Positions 1,297-12,969 of a stretch of DNA of 12,969 bases are shown here, piece by piece. Numbering within the stretch: the first letter of the stretch is position 1; every line of letters starts with the position of its first letter. Source of the DNA: Candidatus Eiseniibacteriota bacterium (lineage in GTDB: Bacteria; Eisenbacteria; RBG-16-71-46; SZUA-252); the NCBI GenBank assembly GCA_031370645.1, contig JANMQV010000168.1:1-12969 (forward strand), written 5' to 3'. The notes beneath the pieces were generated by a model. It was not told where the DNA came from, ran no database searches, and worked only from the letters and a program-made list of their open reading frames with translations. A program made the translations under genes and the position numbers.

Positions 1297-2958
1297 ATGA
1301 GCCTACTCGACCAGTACCTTCTTGTCCGTCGGCCCGGCGCGAACCCGGAACGCATCGATCTGCACTCCGACACGCCCTGCGGAATCGGCCGCGCTCCCGA
1401 AAATAGAATCGTCCTCACCGACTCCTCCGTCTCCCGCCAGCACGCGCGCCTCTTCTCGCGCGAGGATGCGTGGTGGATCGAGGATCTCGGCAGCAAGAAC
1501 GGGACGAAGGTGAACGGAAATCTCATTGAGGGCCCGAAGCGCCTGAAGCAGGGCGACGGACTCCAGGTGGGATCGTTCCAACTCGTCTTCTCCTCCGAGA
1601 CCGCCTCGGCGTCGGCGCGCCTGGCCGACGTGGCCGCGCCCGCGAACATGACGTCGCTTCCCTTGGAAGCGCTCGGCGCGGGCACCGACACGCGCGCCTT
1701 CGCGGGAAACATGTCGCCCGAGCGCGTCGGATCGTTCCTGAAGGCGATGGACCGGATCGGCCAGGCGCTGATCGTCCACCGCCCGCTCGACGAGCTCTAT
1801 CAGTTCATCGTGACGCTCGCCTCGGAGGTGCTCCGCGCCGATCGCACCGCGCTTCTGTTGCTGGAGGCCGACGGCGAACTGACGCCGAAGGCGGTGATGA
1901 CGAGCGGGAACGCGGCGGCCGGCGACATCGTCGTCAGCCGGACGATCGCGAAGAACACCATCGAGCAGCGCCAGGCGGTGCTGATCGGAAACGCCATGGC
2001 CGACACTCGCTTCAAGGAGCAGCAGAGCGTCATCCAGCAGCGGATCCACTCCGCGATGTGCGTTCCGCTCTGGCATGACACCGACGTGCTGGGGCTTCTC
2101 TACGTGGACAACACGGCGGCGGTGGTCCCCTTCGAAGAGTCGGACCTCCGCATTCTGACTTTCCTCGCGCATCTCGCGGCCATGAAGATCCGCGAGACCG
2201 AGTCGTACGAAGAGTTGCAGCGCCAGCAGCGCCTCGAAGCGGAGTTGAAGCGGGCGGCCACGCTGCAGCAGTCGCTTCTGCCGACGGGCGCGCGGAAGGT
2301 CGGCCGCATGGGCATCGCGGGCCGTAACGTCCCTTCGTTCGACGTCGGCGGCGACTACTTCGATTTCGTTCCGGGTCCCGACGGGCGAATGATCGTCAGT
2401 CTCGGCGATGTCGCCGGCAAGGGGATGGCCGCCGCACTCCTCATGACTGATTTGCGCGCCACCATGCGCGCGCAGGTCGAGGTGGGGCGTCCGATCGTCG
2501 ACCTCACGTCGCGCCTCAATCGCTCCATCTACGAGAACGTGAAGGGCGAGCGATTCATCACGCTGATGGTCGCGATGGTGGACGGCCTGACGGGCGAGAT
2601 CGCCTACGTGAACGGTGGGCACAACCCGCCCTACCTGCTTCGCGCCGACGGGACGCTCGAAACGCTCTCGGTCGGGGGGCTACTCCTGGGGATCTTCCCG
2701 GAGGCGGTGTACGAGACCGCGTCGATCACGCTGAAGGCCGGCGACGTCCTGACGCTTTACAGCGACGGGGTCACGGAGGCGAGAAATCCCGGGGGCGAGG
2801 AGTACGGCGAGGAGCGGCTCGAGGCGTTCCTACGCAAGCACCAGGCGATCCAGCCGGAGGAACTGGTGAACGCGCTCATTAGCGAAATTCAGAAATTCAC
2901 GAGCGCGGCTCAGTTGGCGGACGACGTGACCGTCGTCGTCATCCGCTGCGATTCGTAG
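1297..2958 (+). CDS. FHA-GAF-PP2C (SpoIIE/RsbU-family) serine phosphatase
   Basis: FHA motifs IGR...SVSRQHA...DLGSKNGT; GAF-like region (SAMCVPL...VLGLLYVD, FEESDLRIL); coiled linker (RLEAELKRAATLQQSLLP); PP2C metal-binding motifs VGGDYFD, GDVAGKG, YSDGVTEA, DDVT. Confidence 0.93.
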   Translation: MSLLDQYLLVRRPGANPERIDLHSDTPCGIGRAPENRIVLTDSSVSRQHARLFSREDAWWIEDLGSKNGTKVNGNLIEGPKRLKQGDGLQVGSFQLVFSSETASASARLADVAAPANMTSLPLEALGAGTDTRAFAGNMSPERVGSFLKAMDRIGQALIVHRPLDELYQFIVTLASEVLRADRTALLLLEADGELTPKAVMTSGNAAAGDIVVSRTIAKNTIEQRQAVLIGNAMADTRFKEQQSVIQQRIHSAMCVPLWHDTDVLGLLYVDNTAAVVPFEESDLRILTFLAHLAAMKIRETESYEELQRQQRLEAELKRAATLQQSLLPTGARKVGRMGIAGRNVPSFDVGGDYFDFVPGPDGRMIVSLGDVAGKGMAAALLMTDLRATMRAQVEVGRPIVDLTSRLNRSIYENVKGERFITLMVAMVDGLTGEIAYVNGGHNPPYLLRADGTLETLSVGGLLLGIFPEAVYETASITLKAGDVLTLYSDGVTEARNPGGEEYGEERLEAFLRKHQAIQPEELVNALISEIQKFTSAAQLADDVTVVVIRCDS

Positions 2959-4039
2959 TCGACCGCTGGGCGCTGACCGCTAGTTCGAGATTTCGCTCCA
3001 CCAGTTTCGAATGGAGGAGCGTGTCGCGATAGTTCTTACGTGCGAAGGCCGCCTTTGCCTTCGCCATCTGGGCGCGCGCTTCTCGCGCGAGCCGCTCGGC
3101 CGCCGCGTTGAGGCGCTCCCCCAGTTCCCCCTTCGCCTGCTCGAGCGATCGCGACGCGCGCTTGAGCGCCTTCTCCGCCGTCGCTTCCGGAACCGGTAGA
3201 TCGTCGCAGTCGCGAAGCAGCGTGAGGACGCCGTCCCGCACCTCGCGCGTCGAGGCATAGGCCTTCCGCGTTCCGCCATCCTTCAAGAATCGACGGGACT
3301 CTTTCTGACGGCGTTCCAGGGCCGTCAAATGATCCCGCTCTACGGCGCTCCCCGATTCCTGCAGCACTTCACTCGCCCGCTTGAGAGCGTCGTCGGTCCG
3401 GTCGAGCGTCATCGCCACGTAATCGGCGTCGTCCTCGGGCGGGCCGAGGTGGACGGCGATCTCTCGCGCGAGGCTTCTCGCCTCGAGCGTCAGCCGCACG
3501 GCGCGGGCGTAGAGATTCTCGGCGTACGCCTCGCGCGCGTCCTTCTGGCGGGCGGTCGCCGTTCCGAATTCCTCGCGAGCCTTCTTGTTGAACGAGCGGA
3601 CGACTTTCATCTTCACGGGGCGAAGGATCGCCGCCGTCCGCCCCAGTTCCGCCATCGCTCGGGTGCCCTCGTCGGTGACGATTGCTTGAGGGACGGGGGC
3701 CATTGCCACGGCCGTGTGCGGTGCCGGCTTTTTCGCGGAAGCGCGCGCGCGCTTCTTCTCTGATGTGGCGGGTGTGGGTGCGGGTGCGACTGCGATGGCG
3801 CTCGACGGAGAGGTGCTCGCTTCAGGAGTCAGCGCCGAAATCGCGAGATCCGGCGCCGTCGTGGCGGGTCCCGAAGGCGCGGCGGTGGAGTCAGGCGCTA
3901 GGGCGTAGAGGACCACCGGCGGTGTGGAATCCTCCGGACCCTCGGCCCGAGAAGTTGCCACGATCCCGCTGAGAGAAAGCGCGAACAGCGTCGCGCAGAC
4001 GGGCCCAAACGGGCGCCAACGACTCCCCATGCGACTCAT
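2939..4039 (-). CDS. Hypothetical exported protein with Pro/Ala/Ser/Thr-rich linker and three helical repeats
   Basis: Signal-peptide-like N-terminus (RWRPFGPVCATLFALSLSGIVATSRA|E), low-complexity linker, then Ala/Arg/Glu/Lys-rich helical repeats. Sigma54 promoter upstream. Start at ATG 4039 or 4030; no strong SD. Confidence 0.78.
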   Translation of the reverse strand: MSRMGSRWRPFGPVCATLFALSLSGIVATSRAEGPEDSTPPVVLYALAPDSTAAPSGPATTAPDLAISALTPEASTSPSSAIAVAPAPTPATSEKKRARASAKKPAPHTAVAMAPVPQAIVTDEGTRAMAELGRTAAILRPVKMKVVRSFNKKAREEFGTATARQKDAREAYAENLYARAVRLTLEARSLAREIAVHLGPPEDDADYVAMTLDRTDDALKRASEVLQESGSAVERDHLTALERRQKESRRFLKDGGTRKAYASTREVRDGVLTLLRDCDDLPVPEATAEKALKRASRSLEQAKGELGERLNAAAERLAREARAQMAKAKAAFARKNYRDTLLHSKLVERNLELAVSAQRSTTNRSG

Positions 4040-4098
4040 TGAAGTGGATGGTCAACGTCCATCGATCGATTCCGGTCGGAGCATAAGGCGATTAACTA

Positions 4099-4115
4099 GG
4101 CACACACTATGCCAG
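4099..4115 (-). promoter_or_regulatory. Sigma54 (RpoN) -24/-12 promoter for the 2939-4039 gene
   Basis: Minus strand CTGGCATAGTGTGTGCC = TGGCA-N7-TGC with exact GG-N10-GC spacing (consensus TGGCACG-N4-TTGC). Intergenic, ~60 nt upstream of the ATG and next to a sigma54 activator gene. Confidence 0.75.
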
Positions 4116-4233
4116 GCATGAAGTTAGGGAGGCGGTGCGGGGCGAACTCCATGCGGCCGTTCGGGCTGCGCCACCGGCGCCTCGGGTCTCGCGCGGGAAC
4201 GTGCCCGCCGGGATGATCGGCTTCGGGCCGGCG

Positions 4234-4263
4234 CGTACGGGCCCGTACGACCGAAAACGGTCG
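4234..4263. repeat. Two abutting inverted repeats: perfect 16-bp palindrome CGTACGGGCCCGTACG (4234-4249) and CGACCG-AAAA-CGGTCG (4248-4263)
   Basis: Read directly. They lie immediately after the response-regulator stop codon and ~120-150 bp upstream of the sigma54 -24 box. No U-tract. Function (enhancer site or 3' hairpin) is unresolved. Confidence 0.6.
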
Positions 4264-4265
4264 CT

Positions 4266-5666
4266 TCACCCTCCAGCCGGGCCCGCGTCCGCTGTCTCGG
4301 GATCGGCTCCCCCAATGGGGATGGAATGGCTCTCCATGCGCGAATAGAGGGCGCGCCGGCTGATGCCGAGGAGTGCGGCGGCGCGCGTCTTGTTCCCTTG
4401 CGCCCGTTCGAGCGCTTCGAGAATCATCCGCCGTTCCATCTGATCGATGCTCAACCCCATCGAGAGGAGATCGCTCGAGTCGGCGGCGAGTCGTCCCCGT
4501 TCGATCGGGAAATGATGGCGGTCGATCGGCCCGGGGCCGGCGAGAATGCAGGCGCGTTCGATCAGGTTCTGCAGTTCGCGAATGTTTCCCGGGAAATCGT
4601 AGTTCTTCAAATACTCGAGCGCCTCGGGGCGGAGATCGGAGAGAGCGCGATCCTGCTTGGAAAGAAAATGCGCCACCAAGGGCGGCACGTCCTCGCGGCG
4701 CTCGCGGAGCGGCACCAGCCGAATCGGGAAGACGTTCAGACGGTAGTAGAGATCCTCGCGGAATTTCCCTTCGCGAATCATCTCCTCCAGGCTTCGATTG
4801 GTCGCCGCGAGAATCCGGACGTCCGTGCGGCGCATGTCTTCGCCGCCCACGCGGACGTAGGTATGGTCTTGGAGGAAGCGAAGGAGCTTCACCTGGATGC
4901 TCTGCGGCAGTTCGCCGATCTCGTCGAGGAAGATGGTCCCGCCGTCGGCCACTTCGAAGCGTCCCGGCTTCGTCCGCACGGCGCCGGTGAAAGCGCCTCG
5001 CTCGTGTCCGAAGAGTTCCGACTCGAGGAGGGTTTCCGGAAGTGCGCCGCAGTTGACCGGTACGAACGGCGCCTTGGCTCGATGGCTCGCCGCATGAATC
5101 GCCTGCGCGAAGACTTCCTTGCCGGTGCCGCTCTCCCCGGTGATGAGAACGCTGGCGTCGGTCGGGGCCACGCGCCGGGCGAGATTGAGCGCGTCCCGCA
5201 TGGCGGGACTCTGCCCCACGATCGTGTCGAAGCGATGGACGTGGATCTGCTCCTGCAGCGTGTCGATTCGTCCCTGGAGGAGTTTCGAGTCGGCCTTCAG
5301 TTTTCGCGTCTCGAGGACCTGGCGAACGCGGACCGGAAGTTCCTCCAGCAGGTTTTCCTTGAGAATGTAGTCGGAGGCGCCCTCTTTCATCATCTGCACA
5401 GCTTCGCGCGCGTCGCCGAACGCGGTCATGAGGATGACGTCGGGGACGTAGGACTGCGAGCGAGCCTGCCGGAAGACCTCGATGCCGCTGGCACCCGGCA
5501 TCCGCATGTCGGAGACGACGAGGTCGAAGACGTGGGCCTTCAGTTCGTGGATGGCCGCGTCGCCTCCGAGGGCCACCGACACGTCGTACCCCTGCTCCGC
5601 CAGCGTCGTCTGGATCAGGCGACAGAGGTTCTCTTGATCTTCCGCGACGAGGATTCGTTCCGCCAT
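4266..5666 (-). CDS. Sigma54-dependent NtrC/AtoC/ZraR-family response regulator (REC-AAA+-Fis HTH)
   Basis: Receiver (LVAED, VVSDMRMP, MTAFG, YILK); Walker A GESGTGKE; ESELFGHERGAFTGA; Walker B IFLDEIGE; FREDLYYRLNV; FPGNIRELQN; HTH GNKTRAAALLGISRRALY. Confidence 0.96.
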   Translation of the reverse strand: MAERILVAEDQENLCRLIQTTLAEQGYDVSVALGGDAAIHELKAHVFDLVVSDMRMPGASGIEVFRQARSQSYVPDVILMTAFGDAREAVQMMKEGASDYILKENLLEELPVRVRQVLETRKLKADSKLLQGRIDTLQEQIHVHRFDTIVGQSPAMRDALNLARRVAPTDASVLITGESGTGKEVFAQAIHAASHRAKAPFVPVNCGALPETLLESELFGHERGAFTGAVRTKPGRFEVADGGTIFLDEIGELPQSIQVKLLRFLQDHTYVRVGGEDMRRTDVRILAATNRSLEEMIREGKFREDLYYRLNVFPIRLVPLRERREDVPPLVAHFLSKQDRALSDLRPEALEYLKNYDFPGNIRELQNLIERACILAGPGPIDRHHFPIERGRLAADSSDLLSMGLSIDQMERRMILEALERAQGNKTRAAALLGISRRALYSRMESHSIPIGGADPETADAGPAGG

Positions 5667-5689
5667 GGCGCCGTTCGCTCCTGGGATCT

Positions 5690-7111
5690 CTAGCCGCTAT
5701 CGACCGGCAGGCGGACTTCGAACTGCGCGCCGCCCCCGGGGGCGGCTCCAACTGTAACCGATCCGCCGTGCTCCGAAACGATTCGTTCCACGAACGCGAG
5801 CCCGAGCCCGGTCCCCTTGGCGCGCGTGGTGAAGAAGGGTTCGAAGATCTTGTTTCTCAATTCGAAGGGAACGCCGGGGCCCGTGTCTTCGAAATAGAGC
5901 CGCGCCTGGCCGCGGCGCTCGATCACGCGAACCGTGAGGCGCCCTCCGAGCGGCATGATGTCGCGGGCGTTGAGCGCGAGATTCAAGAAAACGTGGTGGA
6001 GCGCGTGCGGGTCGCCGTCCACGAGGAGCGTCTCCGGCGCGTTCCACTCGAGTTTCACCTCGATCTTCGATCGCTCCAATTCCACGCGTAGGATGTCGAG
6101 CGATCGGAGGAGGACCGGCTTCAGCGCGAACGCCTCCGGTTCTCCCTTCGGGCGGCGAGAGAGATCGAGGAAGTTCTGCACCACGCCCCCCATGCGGTCG
6201 ACCTCCTCGTCGATCATCCGGAGGAGTTCGGCGCGTTCCGCGGGGGGGAGCGCGTCGCCGCGCTGAAGCCGCGCCGAGGCGCCCCGAAGCACCGCGAGCG
6301 GATTTCGGATCTCGTGCGCCACGCCGGCCGCCACCTGCCCGACGGAAGCAAGGAGGTCGGTGTGGCGGAGATTCTCCTCGATCTGCCCCAGGTGTCCCAC
6401 GGTCCGCACGTAACCGAGCCCGATGAGGATGACCAGGAGCGAGGCGAAGAGCGCGGTTCCATAGAGATAGGTGCGGATAAAGGTGAGCGGGCGAAATGCG
6501 GCCGAGGCGCCCTCCACGATCACGGCTCCGAGCACCGATCCGTCGGCGTCGAGGACCGGTGCGTAACCCGAGCGGAGGAATTCGTTGTCCTTCTCGTAGA
6601 GTGCCGAGTGCGACGGCTCGCCAATGAGCGCGCGAGCGAGCGCGGCCTGGTCGAGCGTTTGAACGTCCGGCTCGAACCTGAACGGCTGGCGGAGACGCAG
6701 GAGAACGCGCGAATGGGCGTCGAGAAGCACTACGTTCGAGGCGTCGGCGCCCTGGGCCAGTTTCCTCCACTCCCCCCGCACGAAGTCGGCCGCGTCGATC
6801 GCGTCCATTTGCGAGACGAAGTCGGCGGCGGCGGTGTCTGCCAGCGCCTTCGCGGCCGATTGCGGGGGCGGCGCTTCCCCGGAGGCAGCCGTGTCCGCCA
6901 TCCGCACGAGCGCGCCGAAGTGCTCGGGCTTCACCAAGAGGCCCGCGATTTGCGCGGTTCCCTCGAGGCGTTTCCCGAGTTCCTGGTCGAGGAGACGCTG
7001 CGAGGTGCGGATAGAAAGGAAAATGGTCGCATTCACGGCGAGGACGAGCGCGCCGAGGAAGGCGAGCGTCCAGAGGACGCGCGGGCGGAGCTTTTGGATG
7101 TTGAGGAGCAT
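5690..7111 (-). CDS. Membrane-bound sensor histidine kinase (HisKA + HATPase_c)
   Basis: Two TM helices (VLWTLAFLGALVLAVNATIFLSI; YLYGTALFASLLVILIGLGYV) flank an extracytoplasmic domain. H-box VAHEIRNPL, N-box VFLNLALNARD, G1 EDTGPG, F-box IFEPFFTT, G2 GTGLGL. Confidence 0.95.
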   Translation of the reverse strand: MLLNIQKLRPRVLWTLAFLGALVLAVNATIFLSIRTSQRLLDQELGKRLEGTAQIAGLLVKPEHFGALVRMADTAASGEAPPPQSAAKALADTAAADFVSQMDAIDAADFVRGEWRKLAQGADASNVVLLDAHSRVLLRLRQPFRFEPDVQTLDQAALARALIGEPSHSALYEKDNEFLRSGYAPVLDADGSVLGAVIVEGASAAFRPLTFIRTYLYGTALFASLLVILIGLGYVRTVGHLGQIEENLRHTDLLASVGQVAAGVAHEIRNPLAVLRGASARLQRGDALPPAERAELLRMIDEEVDRMGGVVQNFLDLSRRPKGEPEAFALKPVLLRSLDILRVELERSKIEVKLEWNAPETLLVDGDPHALHHVFLNLALNARDIMPLGGRLTVRVIERRGQARLYFEDTGPGVPFELRNKIFEPFFTTRAKGTGLGLAFVERIVSEHGGSVTVGAAPGGGAQFEVRLPVDSG

Positions 7112-10853: not shown

Positions 10854-10865
10854 GGAGGATTGTCC

Positions 10866-11594
10866 GTGGCGGCACCCCTGATCGGCATCGCCCCCAATTT
10901 CGAGCCGGGACCCCGGAACGGCGGCAGCATCCGCATCTGGCGGAATTATCCCGGACTCCTGGCGCAAGAGGGCGCGATCGCGGTGATCCTGCCGATGCTC
11001 GAGTCTCGGGAGGAGGCGCGCGCCCTGGTGGACCGCCTCGACGGCGTCGTCCTCACCGGCGGCAGCGACATCGACCCGATCCGATTCGGACAGAACGCTC
11101 GCCCCGAGACCAATGTCGCTCCGAAGGAACGCGTGGCTTCCGACTTTCTGCTCGCCAAGACCGCCCACGAGGCGGGAAAACCGACCCTCGGCATCTGCCT
11201 CGGCATGCAGACGATGAACGTCGTCTTCGGCGGCACGATCTTCCAGCACCTGCCGGTGGACGTGCCCGGCTCGCTCCAGCACGAGGATGAACCGGACGGT
11301 GTTTCCCACGATCATCCGGTGCGTGTCGAGCGCGGCACCCTTCTCCACCGACTCTTGGGCGTCGACTCGGTGGTGGTGAATTCGTTCCATCACCAGGGGC
11401 TCGGCGACCTCGCCCCCGGATTCCGCGCGTCGGCCCGCGCCGAGGACGGCGTGGTCGAAGCCATCGAGCGCTCCGATCACCCGTTCTACCTCGGCGTGCA
11501 GTGGCATCCCGAACGGGCGTCGTCCTCCGACGCCTCGCGTCGCATCGTCCGCGCGTTCGTGGACGTTTCGAGGGGTGCGCCGCTCCGGGCGTAG
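10866..11594 (+). CDS. Gamma-glutamyl-gamma-aminobutyrate hydrolase-like protein (peptidase C26 / class I glutamine amidotransferase)
   Basis: LDGVVLTGGSDIDP, nucleophile elbow LGICLGMQ, VNSFHHQG, GVQWHPE (Cys-His-Glu triad). GTG 10866 lies 7 nt after AGGAGG (10853-10858) and is preferred to TTG 10860. Confidence 0.92.
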   Translation: MAAPLIGIAPNFEPGPRNGGSIRIWRNYPGLLAQEGAIAVILPMLESREEARALVDRLDGVVLTGGSDIDPIRFGQNARPETNVAPKERVASDFLLAKTAHEAGKPTLGICLGMQTMNVVFGGTIFQHLPVDVPGSLQHEDEPDGVSHDHPVRVERGTLLHRLLGVDSVVVNSFHHQGLGDLAPGFRASARAEDGVVEAIERSDHPFYLGVQWHPERASSSDASRRIVRAFVDVSRGAPLRA

Positions 11595-11602
11595 CGCCCC
11601 GC

Positions 11603-12685
11603 TCAGACCTTTCGTTTGTCGGGCCGGTTCCGCTGCTCGAGATGCCGCTGCTTCCACTTGCGTTTCTCGGCCTCGCGCAACCGGACGTCGGTCTTCATCG
11701 CCATCCGTCTCGCCTCCCGACCCAATTTGAGGTAGGAGCGGAACCTCGCTTCATCGAGCGTTCCGGCGTCGATCGCCTCGCGGACGGCGCACCCCGGCTC
11801 CGTGCCGTGCGTGCAGTCGCGGAATCGGCACTCGACGGCCACCGCCTCCACGTCGCCGAACGCCCGCCCGATTCCTTCCTCGTTCTCTAGCAAGAGCACG
11901 GTCCGCATGCCCGGCGTGTCGATGAGAAGCCCGCCCTGCGGGAGCGGCACGAGATGGCGCGCCGTGGTCGTGTGCCTTCCCCGATCGTCCGCGCGGATTT
12001 CCCGCACGCGCATCCGTTCGGCGCCAAGGAGCGTGTTCAGGATCGTCGATTTCCCCACGCCGGAAGAGCCGACCAGCGCCGCGGTCTTCCCCTCCGTGAG
12101 GTAACGATCGAGCGCGGTGAGGCCGTCGGCTTCGACGGAGCTGACGGCGTGCACCGCCGCCCCTTGCGCCACCGCTTCGATCTCGGCGACCGCCGCCTCG
12201 CGATCGTCGCAGAGGTCCGCCTTGCTGAGGACCACGACCGGCTCGGCTCCACTCTCCCAGAGGAGCGTGAGGTAGCGCTCCAGGCGTCGCGGATTCAGGT
12301 CGCCGTTCAGCGACTGCACCAGGAAGACCGTATCGATATTGGCGGCGATGATCTGTTCGACGGAGCGGTTTCCCGCCTCTTTCCGAGAGAATTTGGATCG
12401 GCGGTCGAGCACGCGCTCGATTCGCGCGACGCCGTCCTCCGGCCGGCCACCGGGGAGCGTGGCCATGACCCAGTCCCCCACGCAAGGGAGAAGGGCGCCC
12501 TCCGTGTTCGCTTCGTGGCGAAGACGCCCCGCCACTTCCGCGCGCCACTCCTGCCCTTCGGCCAGCAAGAGGTACATCCCGCGCTGTTCTTCGGCGACGC
12601 GGGCGGGAGTTCGCGAGTCATCGGTTTCAGTGTTCAGTTGTGCTTCGAAAAACGAATTCCATCCCAGCAATTCCAGACGGTTCAC
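11603..12685 (-). CDS. rsgA: Ribosome small subunit-dependent GTPase A
   Basis: OB-fold VGDWV; circularly permuted GTPase G4 SKAD, G1 GSSGVGKS, G2 GRHTTT, G3 DTPG; Zn site CRFRDCTHGTEPGC. GTG start with GGAGGAG SD (12693-12699). Confidence 0.95.
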   Translation of the reverse strand: MNRLELLGWNSFFEAQLNTETDDSRTPARVAEEQRGMYLLLAEGQEWRAEVAGRLRHEANTEGALLPCVGDWVMATLPGGRPEDGVARIERVLDRRSKFSRKEAGNRSVEQIIAANIDTVFLVQSLNGDLNPRRLERYLTLLWESGAEPVVVLSKADLCDDREAAVAEIEAVAQGAAVHAVSSVEADGLTALDRYLTEGKTAALVGSSGVGKSTILNTLLGAERMRVREIRADDRGRHTTTARHLVPLPQGGLLIDTPGMRTVLLLENEEGIGRAFGDVEAVAVECRFRDCTHGTEPGCAVREAIDAGTLDEARFRSYLKLGREARRMAMKTDVRLREAEKRKWKQRHLEQRNRPDKRKV

Positions 12686-12922
12686 GTCGGTGCTCCTCCA
12701 ACTCGGTGGGCCCTGCGGGACAACACACCGCGGGCGTGGCGATCGATCGGGTTGGTCGGAGTCGCCGGCGAACAGCCGGCCGGAAGGCTACCTAGGCGAG
12801 ACTACTGAAGCGGGGAAAGCCTAGCGGCCGAAGGCGGCTCCGAGGATGACCAGTGCAGTTCTCATAAGGCGACCCTCCGTAGGCTTGAGGTAACGGCGGC
12901 GGCCGGCAGGCGCCGGGCCCAA
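12686..12922 (-). promoter_or_regulatory. Structured rsgA 5' leader; putative uORF-dependent translational attenuator
   Basis: Contains the uORF, an anti-SD (12751-12761) complementary to the rsgA SD region (12693-12702), and a competing 10/11-bp helix between uORF codons 8-11 (12833-12843) and 12756-12766. Confidence 0.6.
12821..12865 (-). CDS. Putative 14-aa leader peptide MRTALVILGAAFGR
   Basis: ATG AGA ACT GCA CTG GTC ATC CTC GGA GCC GCC TTC GGC CGC TAG. SD GGAGGG (12878-12873) is 7 nt upstream. It lies between the promoter and rsgA. Confidence 0.65.
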   Translation of the reverse strand: MRTALVILGAAFGR

Positions 12923-12928
12923 CCTATA

Positions 12929-12957
12929 AATATATAGGGACTATTCAAAAGAGTCAA
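12929..12957 (-). promoter_or_regulatory. Sigma70 promoter of the leader-rsgA transcript
   Basis: TTGACT (12957-12952)-N17-TATATT (12934-12929) in a conspicuously AT-rich patch; predicted TSS ~12922. Confidence 0.78.
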
Positions 12958-12969
12958 GGGTGGGGGCGG

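Follow-up and report, generated by a model that had tools for sequence, protein, structure and literature searches.

A conserved upstream open reading frame and candidate anti-Shine-Dalgarno boxes in the leader of a second RsgA paralog suggest an undescribed attenuator in Candidatus Eiseniibacteriota

The 12,969-nucleotide (nt) stretch of DNA analyzed here, called the window, is the whole of contig G000:C198 from the 3.0-Mb metagenome-assembled genome (MAG) of an uncultured Candidatus Eiseniibacteriota bacterium from soil. Its minus strand encodes a GTPase of the RsgA family preceded by a leader of ~240 nt with one promoter. In the direction of transcription, the order is a promoter-like site, a Shine-Dalgarno sequence (SD), a 14-codon upstream open reading frame (uORF; 12865–12821), 135 nt, and the RsgA-family gene; an initial annotation of the sequence had described the same layout, which we confirmed position by position. 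Comparison with related leaders indicates that the uORF is real, conserved, and apparently translated, and that it resides in a leader dedicated to the RsgA-family gene. We propose that this leader represents a previously undescribed family of leader-peptide attenuators, in which the uORF governs masking of the SD of a second RsgA paralog by anti-SD segments, and we place the probability of this reading at roughly 0.55. The leader matches no described RNA family. At the gathering score, Rfam 15 returned no matches in the window and no leader matches in 14 related loci, and a permissive scan of 12500–12969 yielded only two chance-level matches at E values up to 10. The initial annotation knew of no characterized attenuator for rsgA; likewise, the literature searched did not yield any account of an rsgA gene preceded by a leader or uORF.

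The uORF recurs upstream of orthologous genes. Of 61 upstream regions fetched for Eisenbacteria orthologues (25 plus 36 located in a second batch), 27 contain it, and one more copy is cut by a contig end. Together with 24 further distinct leaders from metagenomes, these 27 leaders from genomes make up a set of 51 in which the uORF is conserved with the consensus M-[T/R/K]-T-A-x-[V/A]-x-x-G-A-A-x-G-R-stop. Length differences among the uORFs amount to whole codons. The Ala codons vary synonymously (GCC, GCT, GCG, or GCA, with Ala kept in 18 of 27 leaders at one position), as does the Arg codon (CGC or CGT). An SD is always present before the uORF in orthologous leaders, and its alignment columns (G48–G53) are at least 90% conserved (n = 51 leaders). 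It is for these reasons, namely the whole-codon indels, the synonymous changes, and the constant SD, that we consider the uORF to be apparently translated. Conservation is strongest in the last six codons, with Gly and Arg nearly invariant, and it extends to individual nucleotides. The first Gly codon is GGA in 27 of 27 leaders (12841–12839 in the window), a codon that accounts for 6 of the 30 Gly codons in the rsgA gene; the second Gly codon is GGC, likewise without exception (27 of 27); and codon x always ends in C. Both the uORF peptide and the RNA that encodes it seem to be constrained.

Further searches tie the uORF to the RsgA paralog. A strict core pattern occurred at 12 places in ~186,000 species genomes, of which 10 precede the paralog and 2 are unrelated. 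When a looser core pattern was applied to metagenome contigs, 59 places were found, 37 of them with an SD and an ATG-initiated uORF of the window's type. An RsgA N-terminus lies downstream of 32 of these 37 uORFs and the other 5 sequences are cut short; the remaining 22 of the 59 matches are without a uORF and look like chance. All real uORF copies with enough downstream DNA precede this second RsgA paralog. The window's genome contains a single copy of the uORF, and one match to the core with 3 mismatches lies inside a coding region.

The end and the beginning of the uORF vary somewhat among leaders. The stop codon is TAG in 21 of 27 leaders. A sense codon occupies the usual stop position in 5 of 27 (CAG in 3), and the frame then extends by 1–5 codons. 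The base 3' of the stop is nearly always G, for which pairing within a local hairpin (P2, described below) and release-factor preference are candidate reasons. In leaders L003, L008, L014, L016, and L128–L130, the uORF SD reads AUGGAGGG, whose ATG is in frame and might initiate a form that is 5 codons longer. This ATG is out of frame in L018 and is therefore probably incidental.

The signals that surround the uORF point to a single transcription unit. The promoter-like site is the only sigma-70-like match in 11400–12969, compared with 0.1 expected, and a TTGAC-like -35 element plus a TAnnnT -10 element is found at the matching place, 47–71 nt 5' of the uORF ATG, in 22 of the 27 orthologous leaders. 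Transcription would start near 12922. The GTG start codon at 12685 matches the starts of orthologues projected by tblastn. Because the next gene is convergent, the unit consists of the promoter, the leader, and one gene. The initial annotation had noted that the leader contains no U-tract terminator; indeed, 11400–12969 holds 0 terminator-like sites (a GC hairpin plus a U-tract), and an intrinsic terminator is absent from the window's leader. The upstream context differs at locus L133 (G085:C44), where an apparent tRNA gene, recognized by eye, and then a GC hairpin with a short T-run adjoin the uORF leader directly on its 5' side; this leader thus perhaps has no promoter of its own.

What the uORF precedes is not the canonical rsgA. 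The initial annotation treated the gene as the rsgA of its genome; family scores and phylogeny assign it instead to a second, patchily distributed paralog. The open reading frame (ORF) matches the family models TIGR00157 (162.1 bits; cut-off 100) and PF03193 (174.7 bits; cut-off 30; E = 2e-51) and falls below the cut-offs of the E. coli-type equivalog models NF008931 (175 vs 360) and NF008932 (118 vs 483). Another RsgA-like gene, which shares 36% identity with the window's gene, is located on contig G000:C56. This C56-type copy was matched in nearly all of 41 relatives searched and clusters with the canonical Bacillota and Streptomyces genes. At E ≤ 1e-80, 94 of 206 genomes of the phylum contain an orthologue of the window's gene, as do 65 of the 121 good-quality genomes, a tally that takes in one unpublished genome (G099) from which no sequences were used.

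The paralog reaches well beyond the phylum. Relatives with 46–55% identity are found in Brevibacillus, Paenibacillus, Bacillus relatives, Acidobacteriota, Actinomycetota, Ignavibacteriota, and others. Two RsgA-like genes are present in each of the Streptomyces, Brevibacillus, Bacillus, and Paenibacillus genomes searched (n = 4); one of the two is close to the window's gene and the other is distant from it. In a quick maximum-likelihood tree of 72 rows, 10 distant copies, including the one on C56, split from a 62-row clade that contains the window's gene (Shimodaira-Hasegawa-like approximate likelihood ratio test, 99), and the Streptomyces sp. copy nearer the window's gene (43% identity) falls inside the paralog clade. 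We used only this main split because long branches meet in the quick tree. As judged from these comparisons, the window's gene belongs to a cross-phylum clade of RsgA paralogs.

The leader RNA contains three local hairpins, designated P1, P2, and P3 (Table 1), that are conserved and show compensatory changes. Helix columns were set by hand because the MAFFT alignment places hairpins imperfectly. Taken together over the 51 leaders, the hairpins are paired in 78.5% of cells (75.5% in the set of 27), compared with at most 50.4% when the partners are slid, and changes on both sides of a pair occur in 57 cells versus 23.3 ± 4.5 in shuffles; 0 of 500 shuffles reach 57. Seven of the eight P1 pairs have changes on both sides across the 51 leaders; P1 is absent from one sub-clade (L011, L012, L015, and L131) and from L016. 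The three outer pairs of P2, whose arms in the window were assigned by reading alignment A2, are formed in 91.4% of cells (51 leaders), and the core pairs of P3 in 85.7% (51 leaders). The top of the P3 stem co-varies, reading GGC/GCC versus GAC/GUC (3 of 27).

P3 is flanked by two CU-rich segments, box B on its 5' side and box C on its 3' side, which are candidate anti-SDs. To score them, the box of each leader was paired with that leader's own rsgA initiation region and compared with pairings to the regions of other leaders. Across the 51 leaders, box B pairs with its own region at -9.82 kcal/mol versus -8.65 kcal/mol for mismatched regions (0 of 5000 permutations as low), box C at -8.93 versus -8.06 kcal/mol (p = 0.0004), and the better of the two boxes at -11.48 versus -9.84 kcal/mol (0 of 5000 permutations). 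With wider windows, the 27-leader set gave p = 0.0095 and 0.0025. Matched variants of box and SD include CCUCCCG with CGGGAG, CCUCUCG with CGAGAGG, and CCUCCGC with GCGGAGG. For the 16 orthologues whose genes are complete, the better box has a median rank of 3.5% among the 21-nt windows of the respective rsgA coding region; in the window itself, box C pairs with the initiation region at -19.2 kcal/mol, which 3.6% of coding windows match. In the window's clade, the best box/SD partner is CUCCGACCAAC with GUUGGAGGAG, the anti-SD helix that the initial annotation had picked out. Thus, the notion that the leader contains an anti-SD is supported by the co-variation of the CU boxes flanking P3 with the rsgA SD region.

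Leaders with unrelated sequences and a similar arrangement precede other members of the paralog clade. Across phyla, an SD and an ATG-initiated uORF of 8–35 codons are present in 59 of 83 distinct upstream regions, compared with 11.3 expected from shuffles. The 83 regions are what remained, after identical ones were merged, of the 96 loci that had no less than 300 nt of upstream sequence and matched at the N-terminus in tblastn; the count of 59 misses several known positives that have other SD spellings. A second type of Eisenbacteria leader (L137–L155 and L020; 15 loci listed), distinct from the window's type (type 1), is found in other Eisenbacteria families and carries an 18-codon uORF (...R-A-S-R-P-x-R...). 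Its uORF segment CGUGCGUCACG is the exact complement of the downstream segment CGUGACGCACG, and a terminator-like hairpin with a U-tract lies in between. In such type 2 leaders (e.g. L142:1-661), copies of GUGACGC are found 5' of the uORF and 3' of the hairpin, and copies of GCGUCAC are found in the uORF and at the gene SD.

Bacillota provide two further arrangements. In Brevibacillus and Paenibacillus (L045–L079), the uORF segment GGAAUCCUCC pairs with the downstream segment GAGGAUUC, which can alternatively pair with the gene SD GGGGGAAUCC. In Bacillaceae (L064, L068, L070, L097, and L114–L120), the partner of the uORF segment ACAGCCCAUGG is a terminator-like hairpin, with whose 5' arm it pairs. 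Hairpins that qualify as intrinsic terminators were found in L064 and L142, unlike in the window's leader, and L064 has two terminator-like hairpins in tandem. SD-preceded uORFs also occur upstream of the paralog in an Actinomycetes MAG and a Streptomyces genome. In the latter (L168, chromosome of Streptomyces sp. at ~6.275 Mb), an SD-preceded 23-codon uORF, MAVVTKGLAHTRMFIHTTSAATG, lies ~130 nt upstream of the near paralog; the distant Streptomyces copy (L172) directly follows an upstream gene and is without a leader. Downstream of the Brevibacillus RsgA paralog is a purine riboswitch aptamer (RF00167; L045:2708-2809, plus strand; 80.8 bits), which presumably belongs to the next gene. From the sequences at hand, uORF leaders of unrelated sequence recur before the paralog in Eisenbacteria, Bacillota, and Actinomycetota. 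One motif recurs among these leaders, complementarity between a stretch of the uORF and an element farther downstream that masks the SD or forms a terminator; it leads us to read the window's leader as three competing segments.

According to this three-segment reading, one CU box (box C, 12763–12751, in the window's genome) would mask the gene SD at the foot of P3 in the resting state. The SD-like sequence GGAGCCGCC in uORF codons 8–11 would pair instead with the 3' arm of P3 and box C, and this pairing would open P3 and remove the anti-SD. The uORF/box C helix and P3 are mutually exclusive because 12766–12756 overlaps both the 3' arm of P3 and box C. A ribosome positioned over the 3' half of the uORF would block the uORF/box C pairing. 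Hence the gene would stay off as long as the uORF is translated efficiently and would be switched on when initiation at the uORF fails or a ribosome arrests within the first codons, so that output of the GTPase would follow translation stress. We favor this direction because the terminator-type relatives use the uORF segment as an antiterminator partner; nevertheless, that translation of the uORF means off, and its failure to start or an early stall means on, is a tentative assignment that we consider doubtful. The sign and trigger of regulation are the weakest steps of the model. The uORF/box C helix itself was the ON helix of the initial annotation, and it is weakly supported. In the window, the duplex is worth -20.8 kcal/mol and 3.9% of coding windows do as well; a version of 6–8 base pairs can be written, by eye, in most type 1 leaders; and matched pairs are better than mismatched ones in the 51 leaders. 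Outside the window's clade, the helix is no better than random coding windows.

A number of observations weigh against this model. In orthologues, a median of 29% of coding windows pair with box C as well as the uORF does, and the co-variation of the helix is weak (p = 0.25 with 27 leaders; p = 0.008 with 51). The permutation p-values for the anti-SD boxes overstate the evidence because related sequences are not independent. The masking box differs by lineage, with some leaders using box B on the other side of P3, and where box B masks the SD, opening of P3 does not obviously free it. By energy, the leader as a whole is not unusually stable: a fold of its 256 nt is worth -101.4 kcal/mol (z = +0.67), and 149 of 200 dinucleotide shuffles are as good or better. 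RNAalifold finds no strong consensus in the 27-leader MAFFT alignment (-3.9 kcal/mol, tiny helices only). The cost of opening the initiation region averages 10.4 kcal/mol in real leaders versus 9.6 kcal/mol in shuffled ones (first-order Markov, two per leader), with real exceeding shuffled in 24 of 51, and the corresponding values for the window are 10.3 and 13.3 kcal/mol.

Nor did folding reveal the footprint-dependent accessibility of the SD that the initial annotation had predicted. In the window, the rsgA SD is unpaired with a probability of 0.21 both in free RNA and when a ribosome is placed on the uORF stop; the value is 0.31 when the ribosome is placed on the start and 0.26 when the entire uORF is kept open. 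Footprint constraints caused no consistent shift in SD accessibility in 24 type 1 leaders and had no consistent effect in the second Eisenbacteria leader type. Because the leader RNA is GC-rich, equilibrium folding cannot discriminate here, and such models neither support nor refute a kinetic switch driven by ribosomes.

The conserved end of the uORF suggests another possibility, in which the leader is an arrest sensor of the ermC or tnaC kind that acts with the opposite sign. The C-terminal G-A-A-x-G-R followed mostly by UAG would respond to a drug or metabolite by arresting the ribosome at termination or close to it; a ribosome so arrested would cover the 3' half of the uORF and melt P2, whereupon the CU boxes would re-pair and the gene would be turned on. 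Arrest peptides such as SecM, TnaC, and ErmCL are typically conserved at the C-terminus, a pattern that the uORF resembles: its conservation peaks in the last six codons, where Gly and Arg hardly vary and synonymous codons preserve Ala. The predominance of TAG (21 of 27 leaders), a codon read by RF1 only, fits as well, and the uORF stop lies in the 5' arm of P2, so that a terminating ribosome must open this hairpin. However, the sense codon found at the stop position in 5 of 27 leaders argues against a strict Arg-stop requirement, and the invariance of GGA, GGC, and the third-position C of codon x argues for constraint on the RNA rather than on the peptide. The other leader types have uORF peptides that show no relation to this one, and folding disclosed no footprint effect, although that test is powerless here. 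On balance, we regard arrest sensing as unlikely.

The spacer between P3 and the gene SD raises the prospect of Rho-dependent attenuation, a form of transcriptional control in which the C-rich, G-poor spacer would load Rho and translation of the uORF, or a ribosome arrested at its end, would gate access. From P3 to the SD, the mean composition of the 27 leaders is C 0.41 and G 0.28 (C exceeds G in 26 of 27), a skew that runs against the G-rich coding sense of rsgA (C 0.31, G 0.36), and the first 40 nt 3' of P3 contain on average 16.6 C and 9.1 G (C exceeds G in 27 of 27). The genome encodes Rho (723 bits, above the TIGR00767 cut-off) and the window's leader is without an intrinsic terminator, as this mechanism would have it. 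Yet a Rho loading site occupies ~70–80 nt, and the spacer, which ranges from 18 to 158 nt across leaders, measures 58 nt in the window and 18 nt in L018. Its C-richness derives in part from the CU boxes, which co-vary with the SD in a way that suggests base pairing; leaders of the sister type within the phylum have a terminator-like hairpin with a U-tract instead; and any polarity could simply result from masking of the SD. These considerations render a role for Rho quite unlikely.

We find it improbable that the leader has no riboregulatory role at all, the 14-residue peptide being merely co-transcribed with the gene or the leader being a protein-binding site with an incidental uORF. The GTPase might, for example, bind a hairpin with a CCUCC-like tail that mimics the 3' end of 16S rRNA, since P3 and the CUCC box bear what we take to be a loose resemblance to helix 45 and the anti-SD tail of 16S rRNA. 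Conservation of the uORF peptide and the failure of thermodynamic models to produce a switch would agree with such a role. On the other hand, unrelated uORFs turn up before the paralog in several phyla, accompanied by terminators or by segments that complement the SD, a pattern that typifies attenuators rather than a conserved peptide product, and the invariance of GGA and the co-variation between box and SD are signals at the RNA level.

The exact model of the initial annotation is very improbable: it held that in the OFF state three nested helices (H1, 12907–12900/12782–12775; H2, 12894–12888/12793–12787; H3, 12886–12880/12823–12817) enclose the uORF and that a ribosome arrested in the first codons melts them, whereupon codons 8–11 capture the anti-SD, and although all five helices it listed exist as complementary strings at the coordinates given, H1–H3 are perfect in the window, H3 (AGCCUA/UAGGCU) recurs in the closest relatives with its pairs fully kept in 6–8 of 27 leaders, and the OFF and ON helices have some comparative support, the nested helices are not conserved in the 27 leaders (H1 pairs in 42.4%, and H2 is essentially private to the window's genome), the minimum free energy fold is without them, and H1 needs one arm each of the local hairpins P1 (3' arm) and P3 (5' arm), both of which are conserved with compensatory changes. 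Scored as a set over the 27 leaders, the three long-range helices are paired in 46.5% of cells; shuffles give 44.6%, and a slide by one column gives 42.7%.

The reading that we prefer, an attenuator that masks the SD of the paralog, has counterparts among known systems. Like the leaders of ermC, cat-86, and cmlA, the window's leader is dedicated to its gene, contains a short SD-preceded uORF and no terminator, and has a segment complementary to the gene SD as well as a part of the uORF complementary to the masking region. It differs from them in that its peptide and RNA sequences are unrelated, the gene encodes a GTPase of the ribosome-assembly type rather than a methylase or acetyltransferase, and two alternative anti-SD boxes flank a conserved hairpin. 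Whereas erm leaders follow a four-segment logic, the window's leader is more simply described by three competing segments, with ribosome cover of the uORF favoring masking. Listeria hflXr (rli80 leader), Bacillus subtilis vmlR, and the ABC-F leaders resemble it in placing a paralog of a housekeeping, ribosome-associated NTPase under a uORF leader. Those systems are transcription attenuators with intrinsic terminators, of which the window's leader has none; the RsgA-paralog leaders of Bacillaceae and of type 2 Eisenbacteria carry terminator-like hairpins after the uORF, as they do. With tnaC and other leaders that couple a uORF to Rho, the window's leader has in common a conserved C-terminal leader peptide, a mostly fixed stop position, and a downstream C-rich tract, although this tract is short and contains the base-pairing boxes.

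A parallel at the level of the gene comes from Streptomyces coelicolor. One report (PMC7157823) lists the RsgA/EngC pair of this organism, SCO6149 and SCO5211, with paralog pairs in which the first-named gene depends on WblC and tetracycline. Both cases concern a second RsgA paralog, in S. coelicolor one linked to stress from translation-targeting antibiotics, and SCO6149 is a putative orthologue of the window's paralog. Control in this WblC/WhiB7 regulon is exerted by a transcription factor, the gene for which is itself preceded by a uORF attenuator; in the window, the leader is that of the paralog itself.

Coordinates of the leader elements and of the annotated genes are collected in Table 1. 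Elsewhere on the contig, the genes with recognizable domains include one for a phosphatase of the FHA-GAF-SpoIIE (PP2C-type) architecture and one for a histidine kinase. Three long ORFs on the minus strand (3–1157, 2939–4039, and 4096–5751) have no Pfam match at E ≤ 1e-5.

Table 1 Features of the window, with the leader of the RsgA paralog listed in the direction of its transcription.
Feature	Position	Strand	Description
Promoter-like site	12929..12957	-	-35 TTGACT 12957-12952, 17-nt spacer, -10 TATATT 12934-12929
Hairpin P1	12901..12918	-	Core C12916-C12912 with G12907-G12903, loop GCCU; local fold
uORF SD GGAGGG	12873..12878	-	7 nt 5' of ATG at 12865; preceded by a C-rich tract
uORF	12821..12865	-	14 codons MRTALVILGAAFGR plus stop TAG 12823-12821
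SD-like segment in uORF	12833..12843	-	UCGGAGCCGCC, codons 8-11; complementary to 12766-12756 (10/11)
Hairpin P2	12785..12822	-	AGGCU 12822-12818 (including two stop-codon bases) with AGCCU 12789-12785
Box B, candidate anti-SD	12782..12789	-	CU-rich AGCCUUCC, just 5' of P3; co-variation with rsgA initiation region
Hairpin P3	12764..12780	-	G12780-C12775 with G12769-C12764, loop UGUUC
Box C, candidate anti-SD	12751..12763	-	GACUCCGACCAAC, just 3' of P3; complementary to 12702-12693
Spacer	12703..12750	-	Variable in length and sequence; C-rich, G-poor (base composition of 27 leaders)
Translation-initiation region of RsgA paralog	12683..12702	-	GUUGGAGGAG (SD GGAGGAG 12699-12693) plus GTG 12685-12683
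RsgA-family GTPase, second paralog	11603..12685	-	360 aa, monocistronic
Peptidase_C26/GATase gene	10860-11594	+	Convergent neighbour downstream of RsgA paralog
HisKA/HATPase histidine kinase	5690-7111	-	Contig gene
FHA-GAF-SpoIIE phosphatase	1297-2958	+	Contig gene

For the window, the gain is a corrected anatomy of the leader: the hairpins P1–P3, two anti-SD boxes, and an SD-like segment within the uORF. The wider interest lies in the gene that is controlled. RsgA is a housekeeping checkpoint GTPase of late 30S assembly. We propose that the second paralog is a stress-type version. Its clade is found in Eisenbacteria, Bacillota, Actinomycetota, Acidobacteriota, and others, with uORF leaders in at least three of these phyla. 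Recurrent, unrelated uORF leaders are a signature of genes induced by translation stress or ribosome-targeting antibiotics, such as erm, ABC-F genes, and hflXr. It is tempting to speculate that the paralog clade is a 30S translation-stress factor, comparable to HflXr for the 50S subunit, and that its leaders gauge the capacity for initiation. The uORF SD, uORF codon 9, and the gene SD would compete for shared CU boxes; a 30S subunit running through the uORF would mask the gene SD, and scarce, immature, or blocked 30S subunits, for instance in the presence of 30S-targeting antibiotics, would release the gene. Such a homeostatic 30S feedback, invented several times with unrelated sequences, is a coherent scheme that we nonetheless think unlikely to hold in full. 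The leaders could serve as reporters for the signal, and because the hosts Brevibacillus, Paenibacillus, and Bacillus relatives are culturable, the idea is testable. The recurrent-leader pattern predicts a function for the paralog in 30S-directed rescue, protection, or backup of assembly, and the leader probably ties production of this GTPase to the performance of the ribosome.

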